Positions 6,024-62,748 of a stretch of 64,000 nt of DNA are shown in pieces. Origin of the DNA: Ktedonobacterales bacterium (GTDB lineage Bacteria > Chloroflexota > Ktedonobacteria > Ktedonobacterales > JADMIN01); NCBI GenBank assembly GCA_036391685.1, contig DASVZK010000033.1, positions 22,701 to 86,700 of the forward strand, read 5' to 3'. The translations under genes were made by a program, and so were the position numbers. The notes under the pieces were generated by a model. It saw nothing but the letters and a program-made list of their open reading frames with translations, made no database searches and was not told where the DNA came from. Within the stretch, counting starts at the first letter, position 1, and each line of letters opens with the position of its first letter.

Positions 6024-7235
6024 TCAGCCTGCTTCCTCGCCGCGCGCGACGACGATGTCATGCTTCGTCGCCCACTGGGTGAGGTCCTGGCGCTGGATGG
6101 CGGCGGCCATCAGGTCGGGGAAGAGGTCGGGCGTACAGGCGAAAGAGGGGACACCAAGGGCGGCCAGCGCGGCCGCGTGCTCGCCATGGTAGCCTGGCGC
6201 GCCGTGGTCGCTGAGCGCCAGTAGGCAGACCATCTGCGCGCCGCTGGCGACGATTTCCGCCGCGCGGCGCAACATGCCCTTGGCGTCGCCGCCCTCATAG
6301 AGGTCGGTGATCAGCACGACGATGGTTTGTGGCGGGCGCGTGATGAGCTGCTGGCAATAGGTTAGCGCGCGGTTGATGTCGGTACCGCCGCCAAGCTGCG
6401 TGCCGAAGAGCAGGTCAACAGGGTCCTGCAGGTCTTCGGTCAGGTCTACAATGGTGGTATCGAAGACCACCATGCGCGTGGAGACGGCGCGCAGGCTGGC
6501 CAGCACGGCGCCGAAAACGCCGCTATAGACCACCGAGGTGGCCATCGAGCCGCTCTGGTCCACGCAAAGGATAATTTCGCGCAGTGAGGAGCGCTTGCGC
6601 CCGTGGCCGACCAGCTTCTCGGCGATGATCGTCTTCAGGCTGGGCTGGTAGTTCTTGAGATTGACGCGGATGGTGCGGTCCCAGTCCAGCTCGCTGGGGC
6701 GCGGGCGGTTGGTGCGCGTGGCGCGACTGAGGCTGCCGCGCACCGCCTGGACCATCGCGCTCGCCAGTTTGCGCTCCAGCTCCTCGACCACCCGCCGCAC
6801 GACCTGCCGCGCGGTGTCTTTGGTCTTCTCAGGCAGGACACGGCTGAGCGAGAGCAGCGTGGCGACCAAATGGACGTCGGGCTCGACCTCAGCCAGCATC
6901 TCCGGCTCCAGCAGCATCTGGGTCAGGTTCAGGCGATCGAGGGCGTCGCGCTGCATGACGCGCACGGTGGAGCTGGGGAAGTAGGAGCGGATGTCGCCCA
7001 GCCAGCGCGCGACGTTAGGCGAGGAGCCGCCTAGCCCGGCGGAGCGCCCGCTATCATACAGCGCCGCCAGCGCGCGATCCATACCCAGATCGAAGTCGCT
7101 CAAGTCTCCCGCGCCCCGCCCTTTGCGGGATTGTCCCGCGGCCTGGGCGTCCGATTCAGCGCCTAGGACTAGCCGCCAGCGGCGCAGCCGCTCGGCTTCG
7201 GCCGGGGATAGGGGAGATGTAACGCGCTCGCTCAT
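6024..7235 (-). CDS. VWA (von Willebrand factor A) domain protein, CoxE-like
   Basis: 403 aa. MIDAS motif DQSGSM (DxSxS) in ILCVDQSGSMATS, followed by GGGTDI. Its start overlaps the stop of the upstream gene by 4 nt. Confidence 0.85.
   Translation of the reverse strand: MSERVTSPLSPAEAERLRRWRLVLGAESDAQAAGQSRKGRGAGDLSDFDLGMDRALAALYDSGRSAGLGGSSPNVARWLGDIRSYFPSSTVRVMQRDALDRLNLTQMLLEPEMLAEVEPDVHLVATLLSLSRVLPEKTKDTARQVVRRVVEELERKLASAMVQAVRGSLSRATRTNRPRPSELDWDRTIRVNLKNYQPSLKTIIAEKLVGHGRKRSSLREIILCVDQSGSMATSVVYSGVFGAVLASLRAVSTRMVVFDTTIVDLTEDLQDPVDLLFGTQLGGGTDINRALTYCQQLITRPPQTIVVLITDLYEGGDAKGMLRRAAEIVASGAQMVCLLALSDHGAPGYHGEHAAALAALGVPSFACTPDLFPDLMAAAIQRQDLTQWATKHDIVVARGEEAG
6039..6104 (-). repeat. 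in-gene copy of the 66-bp direct repeat bounding the HNH cassette
   Basis: Partner of 5187-5252, with two mismatches (6067/5215 and 6079/5227). Confidence 0.85.
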
Positions 7236-9556
7236 GCGGGGCCTCCTCCAAGAAGCTGCGCCAGGACGGGCAGAACCAGCGCCGCCCGCGCCTCATCCAC
7301 CGCGACCGCGACGTCCGCCGCGCCGGGCCGCCTCGCGCCGCCAGAGCGCAACTCACGGACCATGTCGCCCATCGCGCGGCGCTCGGGCGGCTGGAAGCCG
7401 GAGAAAGTCCGGCGCAGCAGCGGCAGCAGGGCGATGAACGTCTCGGGCGATTGCTCGACCAGCCAGTCGTCCAGCGCCAGCCAGAGGCCGTCCTGCAGCA
7501 GCAGCGTCAGCGCCGGGCCGCGCACGACGCCATCGACCCACGCCGCGGCCTCCGGCGCGGGGACAGCGGGCGAGAGCGCCAGCCCGGCCAGCCGCCGTAG
7601 CCCCTCGCCATCCAGCGTGCGCAGCTCCAAAAGCAGCCGCGCACAGCGCCCGCGCACGAGGGGGTGAACGCCGTCGCGAGTCGTCAGCGCGCGTAGCGTG
7701 GTCACCCACTCCGCGCGCTGCCCGGCGTCATCCAGCAGCGCCACACTGTCGTGCGCGGCGCCAATGGATTCCACCATCGTGGTGGCGGCGTCATCGTCAA
7801 GCGCGAGGCAGGCGTTGGGCAGCGCGATCAGCGCGCGCTCAAAGAGCGCGTCGTAGACCGGGCGCACCTCGCCGGCCCGCGCGCCGCGCACGTTGCTGTA
7901 ACGCGCAATGCGCGCCAGCGGCGGTAGCGCGTTGAGCAGGTGGTGGGCGTCTGTCGCGGCGGCGGCTTGCGCGTGGACGCGCTCCAGGACCCCCGCGACA
8001 CCGTCAGGCAGCCCAGCGAGCATCACGGCGTCTAGCAGCTCGGACAACTCGGGCAAGTCGCTGGCCTCGTCAGCGCGGGCCGTGGCGCGGGCGGTGGCGG
8101 CGCGCTCGATGGTGTTGCCCCAGATGCTGGCCTCGATCAGCGCGACGGCGAACTCTACCTGCCACTGGACCTGCCACAGTTCATGGAACGTCCCGGCTGC
8201 CAGCCGGTAGCCGCGCTGCGGCTTGCCCCACGGTACGCCGAGCAGCGCCAGGCGCCGCAGCAGGTGGCTGCGAGCCAGCGCGCTCTCTTCGCGCAAGTCG
8301 AGGTCGAGGGTCTTGAATGCGGTGGATGGTGGGAAGCGCAGGCGTTTCTGTTGCGCCGCCAGGTCGCGGGCCAGCGGGACAGTCGGCGTGTCCTCAGGGA
8401 CCGCGCCCATGCGTTCGCCGATCTCCAGCTTGTCGCGGATGAGCGTCATGCGCGCGGCCTCGCCGTGGCAGAGGACGGTCTGTGTCGCCTCATGCAGCTC
8501 GGTCAGGCCGGGCATTGGCAGGTCGCGCAGGGCGGCCAGCGCGCCAACCAGCCGCACGGCCTCGATGACGCTGGCGGAGGAGATATCCAGGCCCTCGGCG
8601 CGCAACGTCTGCGCCGCGCGCGTCAGCCAGCGGGCGGGGGCGCCATCCGGCGCGTCCCAGAGGTACTCATACCAGCCGGGCGAGGTGATGCCCGCGCCGT
8701 AGCCGCCCCGATAGGCCAGCCGTGAGTTCGTCCAGGGAACCCACGTCGCGGCGACTTTCATCTGCTTGAGGCCTTTGAGCAGCGCCGCGTCGGCGGCCTG
8801 CGCGCCCTTCGCGTCGAGGTCGCGCAGGGCGGGCGAATGCCAGGCGCCGGTGACGACGGCGATGCGCTGGTAGCCCTCGCGCGCGGCGGCGCGGATGCTT
8901 TGCCGCATGTGCGCCTCGCGCCGCGCCTCGCGCTCGTCGCGTGGTGACGCTCCGTCGCGCAGCGCGGTCATCGCTTCCAGGATGGACTCGAAAAAGCCGG
9001 AAATGTCGTGGCGCTGCTCGATCTGGCGCTCCCACCAGAGCTCATGGTCGTCGTAGCCCGCGGCCTGCGCCAGCAGCGCCAGCGGGTCGTCCCGCGGGTC
9101 AGGCGTCTGCGGCGTGGCCTGTCCAGGGTTTGGCGCCTGGACGGGAGCCACCGCGCCGGCCGCTTGCGCTGGCTCATCGTCGGGCTCAGCATCCGCCGGC
9201 GCTTCCACCGCGCCGTTGGACTCTGACTCTTCTGGCCCCTGGGCAAACTGCATGGCCTGGGGCAGGTCTATGAAGCGGGCGGGAACGCTGTGGGCGTGGG
9301 CGTAGGTCAGCGCTTGCCATTCCGGGGAGAAGCGCGCCAGTGGGAAGTAGACAGCGCACGCGGGCGCCTCGGGCGCGTAGACCAGCAACGCGACCGGCGG
9401 CGTCATCTCGGCGCGGGCGAGAAGCGGCAGGACTTCGGCGGCGTCGGGTGGGCCTTCGACCAGGACGATATCCGGGTCGAGTTGCGCCAGCGCCAGGGCC
9501 AGCGCCCGCGCGCAGCCGGGGCCATGGTGGCGGACGCCGAAGAACGTGACGGTCAT
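7232..9556 (-). CDS. large uncharacterised protein (DUF5682-like; name recalled from annotations of syntenic clusters, not verified)
   Basis: 774 aa with normal composition. The start lies 2 nt after the AAA+ gene stop, and the stop overlaps the VWA start. Confidence 0.7.
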   Translation of the reverse strand: MTVTFFGVRHHGPGCARALALALAQLDPDIVLVEGPPDAAEVLPLLARAEMTPPVALLVYAPEAPACAVYFPLARFSPEWQALTYAHAHSVPARFIDLPQAMQFAQGPEESESNGAVEAPADAEPDDEPAQAAGAVAPVQAPNPGQATPQTPDPRDDPLALLAQAAGYDDHELWWERQIEQRHDISGFFESILEAMTALRDGASPRDEREARREAHMRQSIRAAAREGYQRIAVVTGAWHSPALRDLDAKGAQAADAALLKGLKQMKVAATWVPWTNSRLAYRGGYGAGITSPGWYEYLWDAPDGAPARWLTRAAQTLRAEGLDISSASVIEAVRLVGALAALRDLPMPGLTELHEATQTVLCHGEAARMTLIRDKLEIGERMGAVPEDTPTVPLARDLAAQQKRLRFPPSTAFKTLDLDLREESALARSHLLRRLALLGVPWGKPQRGYRLAAGTFHELWQVQWQVEFAVALIEASIWGNTIERAATARATARADEASDLPELSELLDAVMLAGLPDGVAGVLERVHAQAAAATDAHHLLNALPPLARIARYSNVRGARAGEVRPVYDALFERALIALPNACLALDDDAATTMVESIGAAHDSVALLDDAGQRAEWVTTLRALTTRDGVHPLVRGRCARLLLELRTLDGEGLRRLAGLALSPAVPAPEAAAWVDGVVRGPALTLLLQDGLWLALDDWLVEQSPETFIALLPLLRRTFSGFQPPERRAMGDMVRELRSGGARRPGAADVAVAVDEARAALVLPVLAQLLGGGPA

Positions 9557-9558
9557 GG

Positions 9559-11910
9559 CTAGAGAACCTCATGGCAGGCGCGGTAGAGATCTTTCCAGCC
9601 TTCGCGCTCCTTGGCAACCGTTTGCAGGTATTCCAGCCAGACGACACGGTCTTGCACAGGATCCTTGACGATGGCGCCGGTGAGGCTGGCGGCCAGATCG
9701 TCCGCTTTGAGCGCGCCGTCGCCGTAGTAGCCGGCCATCGCCAGCCCGGCGCCCATCACTGAGATCGCCTCAGCGGTGGAGAGCGTACCGCTGGGGGTCT
9801 TCAGCTTGGTCTTGCCGTCCAGCGTCATACCAGAGCGCAATTCGCGGAAGACGGTGACGATACGGCGGATCTCGTCCAGCGCGGGCTTCTCGGCGGGCAG
9901 CTCCAGCGCCTGGCCCAACTGGGCGACGCGCCGCTCGACGATTTCGACCTCCTCGTCCATCGTCTCCGGCACGGGCAAGATGACGGTATTGAAGCGCCGC
10001 AGCAGGGCGCTGGTGAGCTCATTGACGCCCTTGTCGCGGTTGTTGGCGGTGGCGATGAGGTTGAAGCCCCTGCTCGCCTGGACCTCACTATCCAGCTCAG
10101 GGATAGGCAGTGTCTTCTCGGAGAGGATGGTGATCAGCGCATCCTGCACCTCGGCTGGCATGCGTGTCAGTTCCTCGATGCGCCCGATCCTGCCCTCACG
10201 CATCGCGCGCATGATCGGGCTGACGACCAGCGCGGTCTCCGACGGCCCCTCGACCAGCAGCCGCGCGTAGTTCCAGCCGTAGCGGATCGCCGCCTCATCG
10301 GTCCCCGCCGTCCCCTGCACCAGCAGCGTGGACTCGCCGCAGATCGCCGCCGCCAGATGCTCGGCCACCCAGCTGTTGTGAATGATGAAGTCATTCGCTA
10401 CGAAATTGTGAGTATCGGCCATGCTCAAGTCATAGACTTGGTGTTCACCGATTGGTTCAATTGCGACGATGACATCCCAATAGATGTCGCTCGCGGCAAG
10501 TTGGCGAAGTTCCTCACTATTCGCAAGTCGCGCAAGGCGAAGTAAGCGTGAACGTGAAATGCTCTGATGTGGGCGTACTGAGGCGCTTGCTGCAAGTTTG
10601 CGCTGATTTATGTCGGCCTGCAACAAGGTCCCCACACTGGCAAATCCTGCGGTTACAGCGGCGCTTTGGAGACGCGACCATATTTGCTGTGGGATAGTAT
10701 CGAGATTGGGATTAACAGTTCCCTTGAAAGACGCCAAAAAAGCGTTCGCTTCTTGGATATACTTCCGCCCTAAGAGTCCAATCTCATTGAGGAACGTGCG
10801 ACACTGGTCAGTTCCATGAATGAACAGGCGGTAGTGCCCGCTCGATAGACGGCGGACACGCGCGTTGATGCCAAAGCGCAATAGTAAGTGTTGCACGCCC
10901 TGTATCAGCCGCCTCGATTTGCTGGCGTAGTCAATGGTGGCCTGTTTCTTCGGCGTCTCACGGATGTGAAGGAACCCATCGCCGCTGAACAGGCGATTGA
11001 GGAAGAGCGCAACCTGCCGTTTGGGCAGCGTAAAAACCAAATCGGGAATGAATTTGGTCCCTGAGTTAGTCCCCATCTGACCCAGATCGCGCAGCCATTG
11101 TGTGCAGGGATTCGTGGTCTTTCCGCCGCGCATGCCTCCCGAAACGCTGCACGTCCTACCGTCAGGATACCAATGCGCCTGGAGGCTGGGGAAAGCTTCA
11201 ATAACCGCCTTACTGAAATCCTCTTTCATCTCAGGATTAGTGTTAGAGAAGTACGGTAGCTCTTGAGTGAGCGTACCTTCAGCAATGAGGTGCCCAAGCA
11301 ACTTGACGTGCGCGTCACTTGTTTCTGCTGTCCCAAAATATGGCAACGCACGAGGAAGGGCGATTCTGCTGCCCACTTCGAGTTTTTCAAGTGGTTGCCA
11401 ACCATCCATTGTGAGGAATGGATGGTTGAGCGTCACCTCGATTTCTCGCCCTAGATGTGTCGTAACGCGATAGCATGGGCGAACGCCGTTATCCACGTAG
11501 TCGCTCGGCGCTTGCGACTTGAGATGATACTCACCATCTAGTGTAGCCACCTCAACATCCCGCGTTTTGCATGCTTCAGCAACAGTTACACGCTTCCCCG
11601 TCCGCGTATCCAGAATCAGCATGTCGTGTTTGACACATTTCGCTGTCCCGGGCAGGCCATACAGCAGCAGGGCGCGGTCAGTGGCCAGCGTGGCGATGGC
11701 GATCTCCATCAACCGGGCCGAGCCGATGTATTTGGGCGAGACCGCGAAGCCATTGGGTAGCGTGCCGCCGAGCAGGTAGGTGCGCACGGCCCAGGGCGAG
11801 AGCTTCCAGTTCGGCGGGCGCTGGCGGTCGTCGGCTTTGGCCAGCTCGGCCAGTTCCTCAGCGTACTGCGTCTCGGCGTGCTGGCGGAGGACGTTTGGGA
11901 GAGTGGTCAT
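9559..11910 (-). CDS. MoxR/AAA_5-class AAA+ ATPase interrupted by an intein
   Basis: 783 aa. Walker A is split as LLYGLPGTAK | intein | SWVAEH. A Walker B-like RIGRIEELTRMP and a MoxR-like C-terminal region follow. The exteins total 362 aa. Confidence 0.9.
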   Translation of the reverse strand: MTTLPNVLRQHAETQYAEELAELAKADDRQRPPNWKLSPWAVRTYLLGGTLPNGFAVSPKYIGSARLMEIAIATLATDRALLLYGLPGTAKCVKHDMLILDTRTGKRVTVAEACKTRDVEVATLDGEYHLKSQAPSDYVDNGVRPCYRVTTHLGREIEVTLNHPFLTMDGWQPLEKLEVGSRIALPRALPYFGTAETSDAHVKLLGHLIAEGTLTQELPYFSNTNPEMKEDFSKAVIEAFPSLQAHWYPDGRTCSVSGGMRGGKTTNPCTQWLRDLGQMGTNSGTKFIPDLVFTLPKRQVALFLNRLFSGDGFLHIRETPKKQATIDYASKSRRLIQGVQHLLLRFGINARVRRLSSGHYRLFIHGTDQCRTFLNEIGLLGRKYIQEANAFLASFKGTVNPNLDTIPQQIWSRLQSAAVTAGFASVGTLLQADINQRKLAASASVRPHQSISRSRLLRLARLANSEELRQLAASDIYWDVIVAIEPIGEHQVYDLSMADTHNFVANDFIIHNSWVAEHLAAAICGESTLLVQGTAGTDEAAIRYGWNYARLLVEGPSETALVVSPIMRAMREGRIGRIEELTRMPAEVQDALITILSEKTLPIPELDSEVQASRGFNLIATANNRDKGVNELTSALLRRFNTVILPVPETMDEEVEIVERRVAQLGQALELPAEKPALDEIRRIVTVFRELRSGMTLDGKTKLKTPSGTLSTAEAISVMGAGLAMAGYYGDGALKADDLAASLTGAIVKDPVQDRVVWLEYLQTVAKEREGWKDLYRACHEVL
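10375..11637 (-). mobile_element. intein with LAGLIDADG homing-endonuclease domain (421 aa)
   Basis: Begins with Cys (TGT, 11637-11635, CVKHDMLILD) and has block B TLNHPF. Two LAGLIDADG motifs are present (LLGHLIAEGT, FLNRLFSGDGF). It ends VANDFIIHN (AAC, 10377-10375) followed by +1 Ser (AGC, 10374-10372). The DNA is visibly more AT-rich than the exteins. Confidence 0.9.
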
Positions 11911-13484
11911 AGCGGCAACACTTTCACTAGGCGCTCGCGCAGGCGGATGGTCTCGGCGAACGCGTTCAGCTGGTTCTTGAAGCGGCTACTGTAGGGGTTC
12001 TGGGCTTCGGGAACGGCGATGGGTTCGCGCGCCACCGTGAACGCGGTTTCCGGCATCGCCAGCGCCGCGTCGTTGAGCGTGGTATCCCATGGGTCGGTGG
12101 CGCGCGCCTTGGTGTCAGTGACGACCGCGAAGGCGCGCAGGCCGTCGAGGTAAGCCTGGGCCACGGCGACGCTCCACGGGCGCGGCAAGAGGTCCAGCGC
12201 CGCCCGAAGACCCATATCCGCGTATGTGTCAGGCGCGGCGAGCACCCGCAGGACGAATGCGTCCAATGTGGCGGGCGGCAGCAGCGGCGCGAGCGGTCGG
12301 CAATAGCTGGCGCGGTCCGCGTCCATCTGCGCAATCTCTTTGTCAGGCATTGCGAGCAGGGCGTCCCATAGGGCGAGCGCCCAGTCGCGAGCCTGAAAGC
12401 TGGTTGTCGCGGTACTCCAGCTTTCCAGGATGCTGGCGCGCCATTTCGATGCGGCGCTGGCGGCGATAAGCGCGGCGGGCGCCACGCCAAAGCGCTCTGT
12501 CCAGTGCGCTGGCGGTACGCGCTCAAGGAGCGCCGCCAGCCAGAACGCGCGCTGGCCATTCTTGTTCGAGATGGATTGGGTAGGCAGACCGTCGCGCGCC
12601 CAGCTGCCGTCTATCGCGGCGGGTGGGTCGGCGTCGAGCGCCGCGCCATCGAAGGTGATGGCGGCGTTGGCGCGGTCGCGGAGACGCAGCGCCAGCGCCG
12701 ATGCCGGAAGATCGGTGAGCAGGCGCGCGGCGACGGCGCGCACGCGCTCGCCACGGTCGTCTAGCGCTGCCTCTAACAGCGGCTCATCGTCGGGCGCGAG
12801 ACCGGTGGCGAAGGTTTCGAGCATGCTGGCGCGGGTCTCAGCCTTCTCCTTCTTCCAGACGCCCTCGAGCCAATCGCGCGCCAGCGCCGGGTCTTGAGTG
12901 CGCAGGCGACCCAGCAGCGCGATCCGCTGCCTTGTCGTTCCCTCCTGCCAGATGGTCTCGGCGTCGGGCGGCAGGGCATCGCGCACGCCGGGCAGCGTGC
13001 GCTCCAGCAGCCACGACCATTCGGGATTGTGGCTCGCCAGCCAGCGTCCGCGCTCTCCCGCCAGCGGCCCCAGCGCGGCGCGCAGCTCGTTGGTGGCGAA
13101 GGCGCGCGCCTTCTTGAGGGTGAGTGGCAGCAGCGTGGGTGGCAGCAACTCGCCGCGCCGCTCCATCCGCGCGCAGGCTTCCAGCAGCAGGTCGTCGCGC
13201 CCGGTGACGACGAGGCCTTCGATCAGCGCGGCGGCGTCGGGCGGGCAGATTGGGCGCTCCTCCGTCTTCGCGGCTTCCAGCGGCGCGACGCCACGCGCGG
13301 GCAGGCGTCCCGCCGCGTGGTAGATGGCGGATTCAGCCGCGCGCAGCAGCAGATCTCGCCCCGCGTCCTCGCCCGGCAGCGGAATGCCATCGACTGGCGC
13401 GCCGGTGGTGGGAGATGCGTTTGGGCTGTGCGCCAGACCGGCCAGCGCCTGCGCGGTCAGCGAATTGGGGCGGGTCGCCGTCAT
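11907..13484 (-). CDS. uncharacterised helical protein (DUF5691-like; name recalled, not verified)
   Basis: The ORF extends to 13727, but the ATG at 13484 forms an ATGA overlap with the SWIM gene stop. 525 aa, Leu/Ala-rich and predicted helical. Its stop overlaps the AAA+ start by 4 nt. Confidence 0.65.
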   Translation of the reverse strand: MTATRPNSLTAQALAGLAHSPNASPTTGAPVDGIPLPGEDAGRDLLLRAAESAIYHAAGRLPARGVAPLEAAKTEERPICPPDAAALIEGLVVTGRDDLLLEACARMERRGELLPPTLLPLTLKKARAFATNELRAALGPLAGERGRWLASHNPEWSWLLERTLPGVRDALPPDAETIWQEGTTRQRIALLGRLRTQDPALARDWLEGVWKKEKAETRASMLETFATGLAPDDEPLLEAALDDRGERVRAVAARLLTDLPASALALRLRDRANAAITFDGAALDADPPAAIDGSWARDGLPTQSISNKNGQRAFWLAALLERVPPAHWTERFGVAPAALIAASAASKWRASILESWSTATTSFQARDWALALWDALLAMPDKEIAQMDADRASYCRPLAPLLPPATLDAFVLRVLAAPDTYADMGLRAALDLLPRPWSVAVAQAYLDGLRAFAVVTDTKARATDPWDTTLNDAALAMPETAFTVAREPIAVPEAQNPYSSRFKNQLNAFAETIRLRERLVKVLPL

Positions 13485-14878
13485 GCGCGCGCCTCCGTCA
13501 GCGGGGTATATGTCCCGACGGCGATGACGCCTAGCGGCAGCAGCGTCTCGCCATTCCACTCCACCATCACATCTACCGGCTGGCCCCCAGAGACGGCCAG
13601 CAGCCGCCAATGCTCGCGCGCGACCAGCGGCAGCGCGTCGCCATCGGCGTCTAGCAGCCGCCAGTCGCCCTCCGGCGTCAGCGTCGGCGTCACTCCGCGC
13701 AACACGCCGCCCAGGCGCCCAAGCCATGGATCACACGCCAACCCTCCGGCATAGGCCTGAAGAAGCCCTTCGACCCGCGTGTAACTTGCCGGGTCCCAGT
13801 TCGCGAAGGCGGGCTTCGCGGCCGCCGGGCCCGTAGCCGCGGATTTATCCGCCTGGCCGGACGTGACGATTTTGGCGCGCAGAGGGTATGCGCCGGGCCA
13901 GTAGCGCAGGTCGGCGGTCAGGCTAGAGCCAGGGAGATAGACCTCAGCGAAGGTCCCGAAGGAGGGCGAGTACTGCATGATGACGGCGGGACGCTGGCTG
14001 CGCTCGCCCAGCAGCCATGTGCGCTGGACATGGATGCGCTCGCTGTCGTCCACCCACTGCCCCAGGACCAGCCAGCCGTCGCTGACCAGTTCTCCGCGCG
14101 CGTCTACCTCCTCGGCGCTCAGCGCCCATCCGGCCACCTGGCGCACCGTCTCGCGCAGCGCCGGACTGAGCGAGTCCAGACACCTCCAGGCCTGAGAGAG
14201 CAGGGCAAGCTTGCCAAGCTCGGCCAGCAACCGTTCTGGCCAGTCCGCTGCGGAGCCGGGGATGCCTGCCATGCGGCGCAGGCGGTTGGCCGCGCCGGGG
14301 ACCTGCGCGTCCACCATGCGCGCGGCCTGCGCTTCCCAGAAGCTGGCGCCTTTGACCTCCAGCCCGGCGATGCCGTTGCGCATCAGGTCGCTCAGCCAGA
14401 GATCGAGATTGTCGAAGCCGCCCGCCATCAGCCGCTGGCGCTTCTCGATGCGCCTGGACGCGACCTTGTCGGCGGCGGCCCGCGCGGGGGCGTCATCCGT
14501 GGCGTCGGCGGGCTGGACGGGCGTGTCAGTGTTGGGCGCGGCCGCCTTGAGCGCGGCCTTGGCGGCGCGCTTGGTCAGCCAGCCGCTCATCCACTCTGGC
14601 GGCTGCGTGGTGGGAACAGTGTCATCGGCGGCGAGAAGGAGCAGGCCGATACCGTGCTTGCAGGGGAATTTGCGACTGGGACAGCTACAGGCGACGGTCA
14701 GGTTGGCGAGATCTATCTTGACCTGATACAGCGCGCTACCCAGGCATTCGCCCCAGAGCCCGGCGTCATCACGTCCCACGCTTTTCCAGTGGCGCGGCGC
14801 GGCCAGCTTGCGGCCCGCCTGCGCGGACGCGGTATCGGGCGTGAGCGCGAGGACCTGCTCAGCGGATATGGCTGGCAT
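13481..14878 (-). CDS. SWIM zinc-finger protein
   Basis: CxCx6CxH signature (ACSCPSRKFPCKHG) near the N-terminus. The ATG at 14878 is preceded by GGAAGGAGA. The track ORF extension to 15085 lacks coding character. Confidence 0.8.
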   Translation of the reverse strand: MPAISAEQVLALTPDTASAQAGRKLAAPRHWKSVGRDDAGLWGECLGSALYQVKIDLANLTVACSCPSRKFPCKHGIGLLLLAADDTVPTTQPPEWMSGWLTKRAAKAALKAAAPNTDTPVQPADATDDAPARAAADKVASRRIEKRQRLMAGGFDNLDLWLSDLMRNGIAGLEVKGASFWEAQAARMVDAQVPGAANRLRRMAGIPGSAADWPERLLAELGKLALLSQAWRCLDSLSPALRETVRQVAGWALSAEEVDARGELVSDGWLVLGQWVDDSERIHVQRTWLLGERSQRPAVIMQYSPSFGTFAEVYLPGSSLTADLRYWPGAYPLRAKIVTSGQADKSAATGPAAAKPAFANWDPASYTRVEGLLQAYAGGLACDPWLGRLGGVLRGVTPTLTPEGDWRLLDADGDALPLVAREHWRLLAVSGGQPVDVMVEWNGETLLPLGVIAVGTYTPLTEARA

Positions 14879-15178
14879 GCGCGGCGTCTCCTTCCACCAG
14901 AGGGGATGGCGCTGTAGAACCGTCGAAATCCTGTTCTCCGCCAGTATGCCGTAGCCGGAACCCCATGTATAGCCCCCATTGCCGGGGCCGCCTGCAAAGG
15001 ATGGCGGAGCGCGAATTGCATGGTCGGTGGTATGCGATACAATAGCGTGATGGGCGCTGGCCCTCACCCCTTGACGCTGTCCCACGGAGAGAGGGGAGTC
15101 AGAGTGGCCAGTACGCCTCGCGTGGCCATGAAGCTGGCCCCGCTGGATAATCCAATCGCCACAGGGAGAAACCCATAC

Positions 15179-56866: not shown

Positions 56867-57096
56867 TCATGGCTGACTCGATCAAATGGTGTGGCGCAGC
56901 GCTGTCAGGGCGCTCCCGCTACGCATGAGTCTCGCATGCGGAATGCCAGACTCCCGCTCTCCCATGTGGGTAGCGCCACATCGCCCGCCGATTGCGCTCA
57001 TTTGACACGCCGCGCCCGTTCCGGCGAAGCCATGCAGGCCGCAGTTATACATATAGAGGTCGCGGGCAATTCCGGGGTTAGGCAGGCGGAGGAAGT

Positions 57097-57140
57097 TGGT
57101 GGCCCCACTGGGAATCGAACCCAGATGCTCGGTTTAGAAG
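57097..57140 (-). other. tRNA 3'-half remnant (att-like island boundary)
   Basis: The minus strand reads ...CUUCUAA ACCGA GCAU CUGGG UUCGAUU CCCAG UGGGGCC A CCA. This gives a perfect T-arm, acceptor 3' strand, discriminator and encoded CCA. No complementary 5' acceptor strand (GGCCCCA) or anticodon-stem partner is present upstream. Confidence 0.6.
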
Positions 57141-57212
57141 GTCGGGGAACGACTTTCGCTGGCTTTCGGGGAGTGTCGCCACAGGGCGGCATTCCCCCTC
57201 TTTTTGTTCGTC

Positions 57213-57650
57213 TTAGGCCGCCGTCTGCCGATCACTGTCACCGGATTGGTGGTCAGATTGGTGGTCATCGAGAGTTGACGCAAGGTACTTTATCGGATCG
57301 TCAGCGATGACCATTTGCTGAAGTTGCCATTGCCATGCAGGCAGCTTACTCTGAGTCACCACCCTCTGATAGTGCCCCGACTGGGTATAGGTCGTTCCGG
57401 TGGTAGGATTTGTTTTTGTTCGCGCAGGCACCCATCGCTTATGCACATCGCCCCACAGCGCCTTGGCAAAGCCGTGGTCGAAGACGAGTGTGTAAGGCTC
57501 CATCGTCACGTGCCTGGCACCAGGAAGATTATTGAACTCTATCCATTTCAGGTCAGGCACAAAGACATTCACGTTCGGGAACGGTGGTTGCCAGCCGCCA
57601 TCAATTGCCTTCCGGATAGCTTCTTCTAAGATTTGTTGGTTGGTCATCAC
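57213..57650 (-). CDS. hypothetical protein (island gene)
   Basis: 145-aa ORF in the lower-GC region with a 4-nt overlap with the upstream ArdC-like gene. No family recognised. Confidence 0.55.
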   Translation of the reverse strand: MMTNQQILEEAIRKAIDGGWQPPFPNVNVFVPDLKWIEFNNLPGARHVTMEPYTLVFDHGFAKALWGDVHKRWVPARTKTNPTTGTTYTQSGHYQRVVTQSKLPAWQWQLQQMVIADDPIKYLASTLDDHQSDHQSGDSDRQTAA

Positions 57651-58435
57651 TCTCCTTCTAGAGCTACACGCCCTGCTTTTAGTACTGCCTCAGCCGCTCT
57701 ACACACTCGTCTAATCGACGTGTCCGGTGGTTGTTCATTATGTAACCAGTGTTGGATGTAGCCCCGACTATGCGCTGACCACGCGTCATCCGCAATACCC
57801 AGCTCATTGCCGACTAGATAGGAGGTGGCTTCCGCTTCAAACTCGCGTAGTCCACGGTGCGGGAGGAACTCCCCAGCGGATAAGGCGGTGGTATGCCCGA
57901 GAATGATGTGGCCGATCTCATGGAACGTCGTCCGCGTCCGATTGACAGCCATCGGGTTGATGGCAAACTCCAGCCCGCGTGAGTAGCCTTGCATATTGCC
58001 GTCTACGCTGTCATACGGGACTTCGCGTATCCCAAACTTGGCGAGGGCTTGCTGGAGATCCCAGCGCGGCGTGGGTGGCTCCGGCAGCTCCTTGCCTTCC
58101 GTATCTGAATAGCCAAAGACGGCGTTGACCACTTTGAAACCGATGAGCCGCGCCACGCGTTCGCGTTTCTCGTCGAGCGTCTCTTCTTCGGGAGGCTTCT
58201 CTTTGACCAGGACAGGCACGATCACCTCTTTCGCCCGCGCTCCCTGTACCACGTGCCTACCGAGCGATTGCCAGCGCCTATACGACGCGACTGGCTCATG
58301 GAGTCCTTGGATACGGAACAGCAAACAATTCGTGAGGCTATAGTCCCAGAAACGGTTATACGTGTTGCCAAGATTACCGGGAACGGTCAGGGCTTCATCG
58401 AGCAGTCTTGGCCAGTCTAATCGTGTCTCGGCCAT
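57647..58435 (-). CDS. ArdC-like protein (ssDNA-binding N-domain fused to HExxH metallopeptidase)
   Basis: 262 aa. The N-terminal region (YSLTNCLLF...SYRRWQSLGRHVVQGARAKEVIVPV) resembles the ArdC/DUF1738 pattern, and the C-terminal part has HEIGHIILGH. Assigned by eye only. Confidence 0.55.
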   Translation of the reverse strand: MAETRLDWPRLLDEALTVPGNLGNTYNRFWDYSLTNCLLFRIQGLHEPVASYRRWQSLGRHVVQGARAKEVIVPVLVKEKPPEEETLDEKRERVARLIGFKVVNAVFGYSDTEGKELPEPPTPRWDLQQALAKFGIREVPYDSVDGNMQGYSRGLEFAINPMAVNRTRTTFHEIGHIILGHTTALSAGEFLPHRGLREFEAEATSYLVGNELGIADDAWSAHSRGYIQHWLHNEQPPDTSIRRVCRAAEAVLKAGRVALEGE

Positions 58436-58444
58436 ACAAAGAGG

Positions 58445-58765
58445 TTAGGCAGCGTCTTCAGGCTCAGGAGGCAGCATGTCCCTCGGCATACGAGCGCGCT
58501 TGCGAGCTGGCTTCGCAACTTCTTGAGCTGCTATCAGTTCGCCCATCTTGAGCGCCAGCTCTCTCTGCCGCAATCGGTTCTCAACGACGGTTCTCCACAC
58601 CAATCCGACGAACTCTTCAAAACGCTCGCCAGGTATAACGCTTGGTGTGTCACCGACCAGCGCATCATAGGCCGCGCCGAGGCGTTCATCATCCAGATCC
58701 CAATAGGCTTGCTCGAACAATGTTGGTGGTGTTTGTTCTGCTATTCCCTCGATTTGGTCTGCCAT
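58445..58765 (-). CDS. hypothetical protein (island gene)
   Basis: 106-aa ORF in the same orientation and closely spaced with its neighbours. Confidence 0.5.
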   Translation of the reverse strand: MADQIEGIAEQTPPTLFEQAYWDLDDERLGAAYDALVGDTPSVIPGERFEEFVGLVWRTVVENRLRQRELALKMGELIAAQEVAKPARKRARMPRDMLPPEPEDAA

Positions 58766-58867
58766 AGCTAACGTCCTTATTTAGATATTTTACGCCTACG
58801 CCTTGTTTTCTCCAGCTCAGCGGTATATGCGGCTGTCCGTCTGTCACAATAGTCTTCCAGACTGCTC

Positions 58868-59251
58868 TTATTCGCTTCCTTCTTGGCCGTCGTTCAGCTG
58901 CCGCCTCAGCTCGTCAAGCCGATCGAGTAGGCTCGCTTCTCCCGGTTCGTATTCATCGGCTATCGCGTCGAGCGTGGCATAAAAGTCTTCTTGGCCTTTA
59001 GGGATACTGAGCCGGGCGTACAGTCCATTCAAAGCCGCAGCACCGATAGCGCTCAACAGAACGCGCTTGCCGAGGTGTTCATTCTCGCCGCCGGGGTCGT
59101 ATAAACCCGAGGTCCAATTGCTGAAGGTGTAACCGTCTTCCGAGAGGGCAAGCATCGTGGTATTGCCGCCACGGTCCATCTCGTCGAACACGAAGGTATA
59201 CGCGTCGATGACCCCTTCCTTATGGAATTGGTCAATCAGCCTCATAGTCAC
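58868..59251 (-). CDS. hypothetical protein (island gene)
   Basis: 127-aa ORF with an acidic C-terminus. No family recognised. Confidence 0.5.
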   Translation of the reverse strand: MTMRLIDQFHKEGVIDAYTFVFDEMDRGGNTTMLALSEDGYTFSNWTSGLYDPGGENEHLGKRVLLSAIGAAALNGLYARLSIPKGQEDFYATLDAIADEYEPGEASLLDRLDELRRQLNDGQEGSE

Positions 59252-59310
59252 ATAGTAGCATCGTTGCCCGGTTGGTTATAAGGCGGAATGATCTGATGTG
59301 ACAAATGCCA

Positions 59311-59574
59311 CTACACGGCTTCGAGGTGACTGATTCTGTGTTCGTGGTGCTCCACCTGATCGCTCAACCCACCGACCGCGTTGCTGAGGTCCCGGACGGC
59401 GACTTTGAGCGCCTGCGTATCATCCATGAGGAGGCGCGTATTCTGCCGAATCTCTGGTAACGCGTGCACTTGCCGCTGCATGTCGCCGACAGCTTCCATC
59501 ACGGCGCGGAACTGCTCGCGCATCTCTTCCAGAAGCACGCTTGTATAGTCGGAGTTATCTTGTTTGTCGGCCAT
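59311..59574 (-). CDS. hypothetical coiled-coil protein (island gene)
   Basis: 87-aa ORF with a heptad-like charged/hydrophobic pattern. Confidence 0.45.
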   Translation of the reverse strand: MADKQDNSDYTSVLLEEMREQFRAVMEAVGDMQRQVHALPEIRQNTRLLMDDTQALKVAVRDLSNAVGGLSDQVEHHEHRISHLEAV

Positions 59575-59583
59575 ACCACCAGC

Positions 59584-59742
59584 CTAGCACTGATGCAGCA
59601 AAACAGAAAGCGCCGACGATTTCACCGCTTCCACGAAGCGGCGGCATGCCTGCTCGTCTCTGCCCACGTAGGCGTGGGGATCCTGCCCCAAGAAATCCCG
59701 GATCTTCGTCCAGTCGTCATCGCTGAGCCGGATATCTGTCAC
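59584..59742 (-). mobile_element. truncated N-terminal fragment of an IS5-like (DUF4096-type) transposase
   Basis: A 52-codon ORF from a GTG start encodes TDIRLSDDDWTKIRDFLGQDPHAYVGRDEQACRRFVEAV. This fits the L(T/S)D..W..I...L......G.....R.F.EAV N-terminus of IS5-family transposases. It then diverges and stops where LW..RTG..WR would be expected. Confidence 0.35.
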
Positions 59743-60011
59743 GCCGCTAGTCTACCGCTGACTCCTCAAACGTCAACAGAACCTAATTTCCTACTTCAGC
59801 GCTTAGCGGGGCTGGCCGCGCTCTCGTGGTGTTTGCTGACAGTTGTCGACACGTGACACACCGCGAATCTATTATTCGTGCTTTGCTACGTGTCCTACTG
59901 CCTACAGGAGCAGAAATATCCAGCCACAGGCAAGAAGAGTGTGTTGTATGATGCTTACACCGGTAGCCAGTAGTTGACGAGCTCGATCACACCTAAGTCG
60001 GAGGGGATACC

Positions 60012-60890
60012 GTGATCATTACCCATCGAGAACTGGCTATCTTCCTCTTATTCGGTCAATTCCTTGATTTGCTTGGTGGACTATACGTAGCAACAGATAT
60101 CCTCGGCGGCAAGCAGGGTGTGCTCCGGCGATTGACTGAGTTATTTACGTATATCGTTCCAACCACCATAGTGACACTGTTCGGATACCTTTCCATCTTT
60201 CTCGCGCTCTATGCTACTGAACCAAAGCTAGTCGCCGCATTTGGCCGCGATACTGCTCTCGCCGGATCCGTTGGTCTAGGTGTTGGGGCTGGCATCGGTT
60301 ACGGGCTGGGATTCGCTCTCAATATTCGCTATCGCAATCATTATGTCGCTCGATCCATACGCCGGCGCGTCATCTATGCTGTCTTGGTAGGTATCGAGTC
60401 TGGAGGATTCGGTTGCCTGCTGTATGGTTGTATTCGACTAGCTCCCAGCTTCTCGTTCACAATCGCCTCTGCGTTTCTGCTTGCCGCCGCCCTCAATTTC
60501 ATCGGCGGCTACCTTTTTTCCGCCTTCGTCGCTCGCCTGCTGATCCGACGAATAAAAGACCCCGATCCTACCAGACGACCAGATATTCAATCCATTGATG
60601 TTATCGTTGGTATGATATGCGGCCTCGTCATTGGCCTGGTCGTTGGACTAGGGTCATTCTTTATCTTCGAGCCTGACCCGGTCTCGGCGATATTCTCGGG
60701 TCTGACTGGTTCAATCCTGTCTTCGCTCGGTCTGGGGGTGTTTGTAGCTGGCGCTCCAATCATCGCATGGCGGGTCAATCTAATCACTTCGAAACGGTTC
60801 GCCTACGCCGGAATCATCCTTATCCTTGTGGCGTTCGCTATCCAGTCCGCGCAATACGTTGTCGTATTGCTGAATTACCCAATCAATTGA
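60012..60890 (+). CDS. polytopic membrane protein, hypothetical
   Basis: 292 aa with ~8 hydrophobic segments. GTG start preceded by GGAGGGG. Confidence 0.6.
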   Translation: MIITHRELAIFLLFGQFLDLLGGLYVATDILGGKQGVLRRLTELFTYIVPTTIVTLFGYLSIFLALYATEPKLVAAFGRDTALAGSVGLGVGAGIGYGLGFALNIRYRNHYVARSIRRRVIYAVLVGIESGGFGCLLYGCIRLAPSFSFTIASAFLLAAALNFIGGYLFSAFVARLLIRRIKDPDPTRRPDIQSIDVIVGMICGLVIGLVVGLGSFFIFEPDPVSAIFSGLTGSILSSLGLGVFVAGAPIIAWRVNLITSKRFAYAGIILILVAFAIQSAQYVVVLLNYPIN

Positions 60891-60898
60891 GGTTCACG

Positions 60899-61330
60899 AT
60901 GGCACGAACGTCGATCCGTCCTCCGGCCGAACTACAATCCGCTACAGTGCTGCTGACTGCGGCCACCCTTTACTGGAATATGGCTCACGGCATGGAGGAA
61001 CTCCGCTATGGCTTCCAACTGAATTTCGGACTCTCGCCAACGTGGCTTGGACTGTTTTTCTGTCTTGGCTATCTCGGAGAAGTTATCACGTTGCTTATGC
61101 TTGCGACTCGGCCAATGCTCGGGTGCTATCTCGCGCTCGTCGTCAACGCACTGATCGCCATTACAAGCTCGCATCACGTTTTCGATATCCTATTCGCGTG
61201 GCCATATCGCGAAGGAATCATCTCCAAAGCCATCGAGGCGGCACTCATCATTTCTGCCTACCTCTCCATTCCCATCACCATCTGGGCGATTGCAGTCGCT
61301 CGCCGCGCGCAGAAACAGAGTCCGTTTTGA
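60899..61330 (+). CDS. small 4-TM membrane protein, hypothetical
   Basis: The ATG at 60899 is preceded by GAGG. 143 aa with four hydrophobic segments. Confidence 0.55.
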   Translation: MARTSIRPPAELQSATVLLTAATLYWNMAHGMEELRYGFQLNFGLSPTWLGLFFCLGYLGEVITLLMLATRPMLGCYLALVVNALIAITSSHHVFDILFAWPYREGIISKAIEAALIISAYLSIPITIWAIAVARRAQKQSPF

Positions 61331-62745
61331 TCCCTTTCCCTGGGCAAGCAACCACCTTACGGTCTCATGCGCTTGACGACCTGACCAGCTGGGGTAGGAC
61401 TGCTCACGCTAAGAGTCTGCGTTATCCAATCACCTCTCTTGAATCCCTTCAGGAAGCTTTCGCACTGGCAGGCATGATCCAACAACCTATCATTGCATGT
61501 GGGGCAGGTCATAGTTATAATGATGCCTCCTTGTTAGACAACGGTATCGTGTTGGACATGCGGCCGATGAACCGCTGTCTCTCATGGAATGCTCACACAG
61601 GCGTCATCACAGTCGAGCCGGGCACAACTCTTGAGGCGATCTATCGTTTGACATTACCAGATGGGTGGTGGTTTCCAGTTACGCCGACTGCTTCTGAAGC
61701 AACGATCGGTGGCTGCGTGGCTATGAACGTCCATGGCAGAAACGCTTGGAAGAGGGGGGCGCTCGGCGAACACGTTACAGAGATTGTACTGATGACCGCC
61801 AGTGGTCAGGTGATGATCGTGCGGCCCGATGAGGAACTGTTCATGGCCGCCGTCGGCGGCGCGGGACTCCTCGGCATCATTACCCAAATCACCATGCAAA
61901 TGGTACGTGTACCATCAGCGTTCATTGCCGTTCAGACTAACCGCATTACCAATCTGGATGCAATGTTCGCTGCCTTCGATGAGCATGCGGCCGACGCCGA
62001 CTTTCTCGAAGGGTGGATCGATGGTTTCGCTTCTGGAGCAGCCATGGGGCGCGGCACCTTCACGGCGGCGACCTACCAGTCCATTGGGAAGCCATATCGT
62101 CCGCAGCGTTCAGGTAGCAGCCTTAGTGTCGTCCAGGCAGCCGCTGCGATTGGAAGTCGGATCGTTGTACGACCATGGGCACGAGTTCTTGCCAGATCAG
62201 GACTTGCAGCGCTCTATCACACAAGCGCGCCAGCGCGAGGCGTCTTGCAGCAGACGGCGTCTTTGCCAGCCTTCACCTATCACCACCCTGCCGAATATCA
62301 AGTAATGCGGGCGTGCATGCCACATGGCGTCTTCGTTTTCCAGCCTTTTGTGCCAGCGTCCGAGGCACGCAGGCTCTTCGAGGTCTTCCTCAAACTCTCG
62401 CATGAAGCAGCTCTCACACCGCTTTGGTGCATTATGAAACGACATCGACGGGATCCTTTTCCGCTGAGTTGTCAGGTTGATGGTTATTCACTTGAACTGA
62501 ACTACCGTGTGACCCCACATAATCGGCGACGTATCGAAGAGCTGCTGTGTTTCATGACTGAGGCCGCACTAGATGCCGGCAGCCGGTTCTACATTGCGAA
62601 AGACCAATTGCTCAATGCCGACCAGTTTCGACGCTGCATCGGTACATCAACGGCCGCGTGGTTCCATCGGCTACGTCGCATGCATGATCCGCAAGGACGC
62701 ATTCAGTCACGGCTAGCTCATCGTCTCTTCCCTGAGGAGGTATAG
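61327..62745 (+). CDS. DprE1-like FAD-dependent oxidase (PCMH-type FAD-binding domain)
   Basis: LTSWGRTAHA, GAGHSYND, TIGGCVAMNVHG and FYIAKDQ...HDPQGRIQSRLAHRL align by eye with M. tuberculosis DprE1 (LTGWGRTAPS, GLGRSYGD, LYTAKDS..., VDPLRVFASDMARRL). The proposed TTG start at 61327 overlaps the upstream stop (TTGA). The track ORF start at 61042 is spurious. Confidence 0.75.
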   Translation: MIPFPGQATTLRSHALDDLTSWGRTAHAKSLRYPITSLESLQEAFALAGMIQQPIIACGAGHSYNDASLLDNGIVLDMRPMNRCLSWNAHTGVITVEPGTTLEAIYRLTLPDGWWFPVTPTASEATIGGCVAMNVHGRNAWKRGALGEHVTEIVLMTASGQVMIVRPDEELFMAAVGGAGLLGIITQITMQMVRVPSAFIAVQTNRITNLDAMFAAFDEHAADADFLEGWIDGFASGAAMGRGTFTAATYQSIGKPYRPQRSGSSLSVVQAAAAIGSRIVVRPWARVLARSGLAALYHTSAPARGVLQQTASLPAFTYHHPAEYQVMRACMPHGVFVFQPFVPASEARRLFEVFLKLSHEAALTPLWCIMKRHRRDPFPLSCQVDGYSLELNYRVTPHNRRRIEELLCFMTEAALDAGSRFYIAKDQLLNADQFRRCIGTSTAAWFHRLRRMHDPQGRIQSRLAHRLFPEEV

Positions 62746-62748
62746 GCC

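Follow-up and report, generated by a model that had tools for sequence, protein, structure and literature searches.

A predicted class 1 intein with a LAGLIDADG homing endonuclease domain in the Walker A motif of a MoxR-like ATPase from a Ktedonobacterales bacterium

The DNA analyzed here is a stretch of 64,000 nucleotides from a Ktedonobacterales bacterium (contig DASVZK010000033.1, positions 22,701 to 86,700 of the forward strand; assembly GCA_036391685.1), and this whole stretch is referred to as the window. A five-gene operon on its reverse strand contains a gene for a MoxR-like AAA_5 ATPase, the Walker A motif (P-loop) of which is interrupted in frame by a segment of 421 amino acids. The segment has the features of a class 1 intein, a self-splicing protein element, with an embedded LAGLIDADG homing endonuclease.

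The interrupted ATPase gene

The gene is a single open reading frame (ORF) with no stop codon and no frameshift, and its parts are listed in Table 1 together with the other genes of the operon. The junctions of the precursor read ...ALLLYGLPGTAK / CVKHDM ... NDFIIHN / SWVAEH..., where the segment between the two slashes corresponds to residues 92-512. The Walker A residues Lys91 and Ser513 are thus parted by the insert, and Ser513, which is the +1 residue of the intein, is the host's own Walker A Ser/Thr. After removal of the intein the P-loop reads G-L-P-G-T-A-K-S, identical to that of the intein-less orthologues. The Ala before the P-loop Lys is invariant in the host ATPase family and represents the MoxR-type variant of Walker A. 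Pfam AAA_5 was matched on precursor residues 513-640 (E=1.5e-30). For annotation, the gene is better named an intein-containing ATPase than a 783-aa fusion protein.

Table 1. Coordinates of the features in the window (aa, amino acids; pLDDT, predicted local distance difference test score; dN/dS, ratio of nonsynonymous to synonymous substitution rates; L001, an intein-less locus described in the text)
Feature	Position	Strand	Basis
Precursor gene: MoxR-like AAA_5 ATPase with intein, 783 aa; predicted spliced product 362 aa	9559..11910	-	One uninterrupted ORF; Pfam AAA_5, Intein_splicing, LAGLIDADG_3
N-extein, aa 1-91, ending ...LLLYGLPGTAK (Walker A through Lys)	11638..11910	-	Junction and orthologue alignment
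Predicted class 1 intein, 421 aa, precursor residues 92-512, with embedded LAGLIDADG homing endonuclease	10375..11637	-	Motifs, profiles, fold, gap against orthologues
C-extein, +1 Ser first (SWVAEH...), remainder of AAA_5, C-terminal lid and stop codon	9559..10374	-	AAA_5 match, alignment
HINT N-terminal lobe, intein aa 1-100, block A (Cys1) and block B (TLNH, 11422-11433)	11338..11637	-	Ssp DnaB mini-intein residues 5-101; beta strands predicted, pLDDT 96-98
HINT C-terminal lobe, intein aa 385-421, block F (D403, H410) and block G (H420, N421)	10375..10485	-	Aligns to C-terminal part of Ssp DnaB mini-intein
Predicted homing endonuclease region, intein aa 101-384, double LAGLIDADG core followed by helical extension (aa ~294-381)	10486..11337	-	Pfam, AlphaFold2, Foldseek, dN/dS
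LAGLIDADG motif 1, LLGHLIAEG, acidic residue intein E120	11275..11301	-	E120 and G121 invariant in same-site alleles; G121 across 30 relatives
LAGLIDADG motif 2, LNRLFSGDG, acidic residue intein D220	10975..11001	-	D220 and G221 invariant across 30 relatives; NRLFSGDG in 7/7 related loci
Operon gene 1: SWIM zinc-finger protein, likely start MPAISAEQ	13481..14878	-	Pfam SWIM; start by alignment to L001 orthologue
Operon gene 2: DUF5691 protein, start MTATRPNS, ATGA overlaps on both sides	11907..13484	-	Pfam DUF5691, E=1e-107; start from L001 alignment
Operon gene 4: DUF5682 protein	7232..9556	-	Pfam DUF5682, E=3.7e-250
Operon gene 5: VWA_CoxE (von Willebrand A) protein	6024..7235	-	Pfam VWA_CoxE, E=1.3e-49

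Orthologues were searched for using the spliced 362-aa sequence as the query, and thousands of homologues were returned. The best 120 of them were all intein-less proteins of 356-388 aa that were 79-95% identical to the query and matched AAA_5 only; they include named Ktedonobacterales and Dictyobacter proteins, with the JGI name 'MoxR-like ATPase'. When nine of these were aligned with the precursor, a single clean gap of 421 columns was found between K91 and S513, where the orthologues read GTAK/S, and residues G85, P87, G88, T89, A90, K91, and S513 were invariant. The metagenome orthologues of the extein gave the same picture, the intein being absent in all of the best 80 of 240 relatives. 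The locus L001 (Ktedonobacterales metagenome-assembled genome (MAG) GCA_035716045.1) encodes the orthologue with 95% identity in a syntenic operon without the intein, and the gene order of its contig, QueF, HIT, SWIM, DUF5691, AAA_5, DUF5682, and VWA_CoxE, is the same as in the window. The exteins of the window and L001 are 88% identical at the nucleotide level, and the two sequences differ at an exact junction by a clean insertion of 1263 nt. The junction in the window reads ...GGGACAGCGAAA / (1263 nt) / AGCTGGGTGGCC..., and the intein-less site of L001 reads ...GGGACGGCAAAA / TCGTGGGTGGCC... (core around the junction, ...CCGGGGACGGCAAAA / TCGTGGGTGGCCGAG...).

These junctions and orthologues agree with the initial annotation, which had placed an intein at exactly 10375-11637 (residues 92-512), between the Lys and the Ser of the P-loop. 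The restored loop it had given, GxxGxGKS, was wrong, however; the loop is GLPGTAKS, with Ala preceding the Lys.

Predicted splicing and endonuclease domains

The identity of the segment as an intein was supported by database matches far above chance. Pfam Intein_splicing spanned precursor residues 104-512 (E=6.5e-20), the NCBIfam models intein_Nterm and intein_Cterm both exceeded their cut-offs, and the intein part of the NCBIfam model for intein-containing DnaB was matched at E=1.3e-92. In the PDB, the top sequence match was the Ssp DnaB mini-intein (E=2.7e-24), aligned over the two lobes of the splicing domain; RecA mini-inteins were also matched.

Conservation of the splicing residues was scored on an alignment of the intein with 29 relatives, i.e., 30 related sequences. 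Cys1, the nucleophile of the intein (precursor residue 92), was nearly invariant across them. In block B (T69-L-N-H72), H72 was invariant across all 30, and T69 was invariant in the alleles found at the same site in other genomes (see below). D403 and H410 of block F (V-Y-D403-L-S-M-A-D-T-H410-N-F) were likewise invariant across the 30, and H420 and N421 of block G were both nearly invariant; the sequence of blocks F and G is VYDLSMADTHNFVANDFIIHN. All of the splicing hallmarks that had been claimed from the sequence, namely Cys1, TLNH in block B, the terminal HN, and the +1 Ser, are thus present.

The intein was assigned to class 1 because it combines Cys1 with a block F Asp and does not have the class 3 arrangement. 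Class 3 inteins have no nucleophile at position 1 and carry a WCT triplet, with the Cys of block F as the nucleophile (PMC6195587). A class 3 intein of the M. smegmatis DnaBi1 type was considered and rejected, as Cys1 is present and block F has Asp (D403), not Cys.

An AlphaFold2 model, built from the alignment of the intein with its relatives, had a mean pLDDT of 92.6 and a predicted template modelling score of 0.92. In the model, two beta-rich lobes (aa 1-100 and 385-421) are accompanied by a central domain of two units and a helical extension (aa ~294-381). The predicted structure superposed on mini-inteins with a root-mean-square deviation of 1.3-1.7 Å over ~96 residues, and the splicing domain is accordingly modelled as a HINT fold.

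The central domain showed the features of a homing endonuclease. Pfam LAGLIDADG_3 was matched on precursor residues 299-378 with E=2.2e-16 and 60.3 bits (cut-off, 22.5), and in the predicted structure the domain consists of two alpha-beta-beta-alpha-beta-beta-alpha units, the first helices of which end at E120 and D220. A Foldseek search with the whole model retrieved TliVMA (7qss; E=7e-23, template modelling score 0.72) followed by PI-PfuI, PI-TkoII, and PI-SceI, and the lobes were matched separately to mini-inteins and to free-standing LAGLIDADG enzymes such as I-DmoI. Both of the LAGLIDADG motifs noted in the initial annotation were confirmed, with their acidic residues intact, and the endonuclease may still be active.

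From established intein chemistry, the following course can be proposed. Translation would yield the 783-aa precursor, in which the P-loop is split between Lys91 and Ser513 and the HINT domain folds. An N-S acyl shift at Cys1 would produce a thioester with Lys91, and the N-extein would then be received by Ser513 (+1) through trans-esterification. Cyclization of the terminal Asn421 would follow, and an O-N shift would convert the ester to a peptide bond. The product would be the 362-aa ATPase with a GLPGTAKS loop, which would act with its SWIM, DUF5691, DUF5682, and VWA_CoxE partners. The freed intein, judging from its family, would cut intein-less alleles at the site encoding the P-loop, and repair would copy the intein into them. 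It is reasonable to expect, given the position in the P-loop and the RadA precedent, that the precursor would be unable to bind or hydrolyze ATP properly before splicing; the P-loop intein of P. horikoshii RadA blocks ATPase function, as cited in PMC6195587.

Distribution, composition and probable mobility of the intein

A carrier scan covering one genome per GTDB species revealed seven further carriers, of which five belong to Chloroflexota (Ktedonobacterales and "Chloroflexia" MAGs) and two to Gemmataceae (Planctomycetota). The inteins of these carriers are 58-84% identical to that of the window. In 7/7 the host is an orthologous AAA_5 ATPase carrying the intein at the identical site, and the open frame, Cys1, HN, +1 Ser, and NRLFSGDG are kept. 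When the intein alone was used for searching, the nearest relatives (56-83% identical) were found in other AAA_5 ATPases, many of them cut by contig ends, and all of the readable junctions were GTAK/C...HN/SW. With seven carriers against 80 listed metagenome loci free of the intein, the distribution is sporadic, at one site and in two phyla.

These carriers bear on the alternative, raised in the initial annotation, of a conserved insertion domain that does not splice (a degenerate or bacterial intein-like HINT domain), as well as on an artefact of assembly. Both readings were rejected and are extremely improbable, since orthologues up to 95% identical do not have the segment and seven genomes assembled independently of one another carry the same insert in frame; nothing in favour of either reading was found. 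In addition, all of the splicing residues are present and conserved, and the ORF is free of stops and frameshifts.

The guanine-plus-cytosine (GC) content of the intein is 0.526, compared with 0.674 and 0.659 for the two exteins, and that at third codon positions (GC3) is 0.56 compared with 0.87. When every 1263-nt segment of the 64 kb is taken as the reference, the GC content of the intein has a z-score of -2.7, and the intein GC was also below that of the flanking exteins in 7/7 related loci. The intein is thus more AT-rich than its exteins, as had been noted by eye in the initial annotation.

Selection on the intein was estimated by pairwise Nei-Gojobori analysis of codon alignments, and the closest pairs were the window with L002, the window with L003, L002 with L003, and L007 with L008. 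In these pairs, dN/dS was 0.03-0.08 for the LAGLIDADG core, 0.05-0.12 for the splicing lobes, and 0.09-0.25 for the helical extension, values that are only approximate because synonymous sites are near or at saturation. The contrast between the proportions of nonsynonymous (pN ~0.2) and synonymous (pS ~0.8) differences in allele pairs is nevertheless plain despite the saturation. On these substitution patterns, strong purifying selection acts on the endonuclease core.

The histories of the inteins and their hosts are discordant. The C-exteins of L002 and L003 are 98% identical (270 aa compared, dS 0.31), whereas their inteins are just 84% identical (dS 1.0-1.4), a discordance that requires transfer between alleles. 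The inteins of L004 and L005 are 70% identical, and their C-exteins 54%. Purifying selection on the endonuclease, taken together with the discordant histories of intein and extein, suggests that the element is or recently was mobile.

The codon of the +1 Ser provided a further indication. It is AGC or AGT in 8/8 intein-bearing alleles, AGT being used even where GC3 is above 0.8, whereas 45 of the 55 intein-less Ser alleles have TCN at this codon and 10 have AGY. The association of AGY with the presence of the intein gave a Fisher p of 1.1e-5, computed without regard to shared ancestry. The codon pattern fits co-conversion of the adjacent codon during homing. No clear co-conversion tract beyond the +1 codon was found between the exteins of the window and L001, where the upstream mismatch density was about the gene average.

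AGY at the Walker A Ser was observed in the intein-less loci L010, L013, L022, L025-L027, L045, L051, L076, and L078; in L013 and L022 the codon is AGT, in genes with a GC3 of about 0.8. Such alleles may be footprints of a past intein and its precise loss, or may reflect differing sensitivity to the endonuclease. A tblastn search of the 64-kb window with its own intein for a second intein matched only the intein itself.

In summary, the sequence and the predicted structure make it very probable that the gene carries a genuine class 1 intein containing a double-motif LAGLIDADG endonuclease, a selfish element that entered the Walker A DNA by homing, splices, and frees its endonuclease. The element appears intact and is probably still mobile. 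The evolutionary signature of a homing element, i.e., sporadic distribution and discordant history, is seen in the alleles compared, which form a small sample. Horizontal acquisition with a possibly active endonuclease, as proposed in the initial annotation, is supported by the 1263-nt insertion, the intact catalytic residues, the dN/dS values, the discordance, and the AlphaFold match.

Several points weigh against this interpretation. Splicing and cleavage are deduced from sequence and predicted structure, and the dN/dS values have the approximate nature stated above. Purifying selection speaks for function across the history of the lineage, not in the window copy itself. The codon association and the discordance come from eight alleles that are not phylogenetically independent, and horizontal transfer of the whole operon could contribute to the cross-phylum pattern. 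Finally, the GC content of the intein partly follows that of the host, ranging from 0.44 to 0.63 across loci, so that residence in each host may be long and not recent.

The last point is also what would be expected of a stranded intein, which splices but whose endonuclease in the window copy is inactive or without a target, so that it is inherited only vertically. Such an intein would persist because its imprecise loss would destroy the P-loop, and many inteins carry inactive endonucleases, according to PMC8966425. This explanation is unlikely, as both motifs and their acidic residues E120 and D220 are intact and do not vary among the alleles, the dN/dS of the endonuclease core is as low as or below that of the splicing domain, and the transfer between alleles required by L002 and L003 does not agree with vertical inheritance alone.

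Another explanation, suggested in the initial annotation as a post-translational switch, is that the intein was co-opted for conditional splicing, in which an environmental signal (redox, metal, or temperature) gates the MoxR-VWA system. The intein would then be kept as an environment-responsive gate, e.g., through redox chemistry of Cys1 with a clade-invariant cysteine, and the operon machine would be inactive until splicing. Precedents are M. smegmatis DnaBi1, which is reversibly blocked by oxidation, and RadA, as described in PMC6195587 and PMC4513877. In the window intein, the catalytic Cys1 is accompanied by C55, C163, C178, and C279, which are invariant among five aligned same-site alleles. 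The sequence data themselves say nothing on regulation, for or against. Since the 120 homologues and the 80 metagenome relatives described above all have no intein, the operon system does not need such a switch, and a selfish element would show just this distribution and foreign composition. The sporadic distribution is explained no less well by a selfish element than by a switch, and the switch is quite improbable, more so than a stranded intein. If true, the gate would provide the first example of such a switch in a protein other than those of replication and repair.

Apart from the intein, a broad stretch of lower GC content was observed at positions 57000-64000 of the window (0.50-0.59 against a window mean of 0.655), with a minimum of 0.518 at about 59830-61092, as low as the intein. 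The stretch contains an ORF on the reverse strand (57647-58435) with a sub-threshold match to the ArdC N-terminal domain (E=4e-4), an ORF on the forward strand (61042-62745) for a FAD_binding_4 protein, and several ORFs without a Pfam match. It may be a horizontally acquired island.

Host operon and comparison with known inteins

The five-protein system assumed in the initial annotation was confirmed by Pfam as an operon of five genes in the order SWIM, DUF5691, AAA_5, DUF5682, and VWA_CoxE. Start and stop codons overlap as ATGA at 3/4 of the operon junctions (SWIM/DUF5691, DUF5691/ATPase, and DUF5682/VWA), and the ATPase and DUF5682 genes are separated by a 2-nt gap, an arrangement that suggests translational coupling. 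The longest ORFs of the SWIM (13481-15085) and DUF5691 (11907-13727) genes were over-extended at the 5' end, and their starts were moved to 14878 and 13484, respectively.

DUF5682 and VWA_CoxE were recognizable in the five Chloroflexota carrier loci and in the Gemmataceae locus L007, and SWIM and DUF5691 in 4/5 Chloroflexota carrier loci. In the Gemmataceae locus L008, the operon partners gave weak partial matches only, and the sequence ends before the position of VWA_CoxE. The VWA_CoxE gene lies two genes downstream of the ATPase gene and is present in L001-L007. In L002, it matches the window protein at 10388-11558 in two abutting pieces in different frames (10388-11398 and 11397-11558), which may be due to a frameshift or a sequencing error.

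MoxR-type ATPases usually pair with VWA proteins, and a chaperone-like or maturation role is generally ascribed to such pairs. A reading of the operon as a defence system was rejected, as PADLOC gave two weak partial matches that are insufficient for it (IetA, E=7e-4 over 29 residues around the P-loop; PDC-S62, E=3e-5 over the SWIM region). An NCBIfam scan of the operon partner proteins found no names, and a literature search found no paper on DUF5682 or DUF5691 and nothing relevant for the combination of MoxR, vWA, and SWIM.

Next to the AAA_5 alleles, the closest relatives of the window intein are DnaB P-loop inteins of class 1 (PSMGK/C...HN/T; 38-45% identity), the architecture of which is the same. 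DnaX-like, DnaB/KaiC-like, and archaeal GKRGSGK/SY ATPases also carry related P-loop inteins, and inteins at the H4 site of DnaB (RESG/C...HN/SIEQD) are more distant, with 33-38% identity. A neighbour-joining tree was built from 73 full inteins (100 bootstraps); in it, the eight AAA_5 inteins were monophyletic (100%) and all 25 P-loop-site inteins formed one clade (100%), with the DnaB H4-site inteins outside. The lineage, found at the same Lys/(Ser/Thr) position in such varied hosts, has thus colonized the P-loops of several unrelated ATPases.

Two details of the sampled inteins are added here. The proteins P0147, P0165, P0175, P0164, and P0170, which are DnaX-like clamp-loader, archaeal, or DnaB/KaiC-like hosts, carry related class 1 LAGLIDADG inteins at the same Lys/(Ser/Thr). 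In the tree, the AAA_5 inteins had as their nearest outgroup four inteins of 'other P-loop host' proteins (bootstrap 76).

Among solved structures, the splicing domain closest in sequence is that of the Ssp DnaB intein (Synechocystis sp. PCC 6803; 1mi8, 6frg), and in the Foldseek alignments of 1mi8 and related entries, identity across the aligned HINT lobe was 36-38%. The Ssp DnaB intein likewise has Cys1 and a TxxH motif (TANH), and its block F/G sequence, VFDLTVPGPHNFVANDIIVH, is nearly identical to that of the window intein given above. The solved Ssp DnaB forms are without an endonuclease, unlike the window intein, and the Ssp DnaB intein is located in the H4 motif of DnaB (RESG/SIEQD), as are the more distant H4-site relatives above, not in a P-loop. 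TliVMA (7qss), PI-PfuI (1dq3), PI-TkoII (2cw7), and PI-SceI (1vde) combine HINT with a double LAGLIDADG domain, as is predicted here, and match the model over its full length, but they share only 11-18% identity with it and differ in host and insertion site. The window intein, as a compact class 1 intein near the much-used Ssp DnaB that would tolerate Lys at -1 and Ser at +1, may find modest use in protein engineering, and its endonuclease, if active, would offer a new rare-cutting specificity.

The M. smegmatis DnaBi1 and P. horikoshii RadA inteins are also located in ATPase P-loops (PMC6195587). DnaBi1, however, is a class 3 mini-intein that has neither Cys1 nor an endonuclease (PMC6195587), whereas the window intein is assigned to class 1 and carries an endonuclease domain.

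With respect to earlier descriptions, a literature search found no intein in a MoxR-type host, although the supplementary tables of the Novikova survey may list one, and a search for intein together with Ktedonobacter gave nothing relevant. Intein Pfam domains have already been attached to such proteins by public pipelines. Within the literature searched, an intein in a MoxR-like AAA_5 host has not been described previously.

The insertion point itself is familiar. Insertion between Lys and Thr/Ser has been called the "classic" P-loop intein insertion (PMC5050341; PMC4760082), and inteins are enriched in ATPase P-loops (PMC4760082). The element is thus of a known kind, because GK/(S or T) is the classic insertion site, shared by the DnaB P-loop-site inteins with a LAGLIDADG endonuclease, MCM-a, RFC-a, and mycobacteriophage TerL1-a. 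In contrast to these, the window host has Ala before the Lys and is a MoxR-like AAA_5 ATPase of an uncharacterized operon, whereas their hosts are proteins of replication, repair, or packaging. The range of intein hosts would accordingly be extended past those proteins to an ATPase of a widespread, uncharacterized five-gene operon. One intein lineage at the same Lys/(Ser/Thr) of unrelated ATPases also provides a clean natural case that bears on how inteins colonize their hosts.

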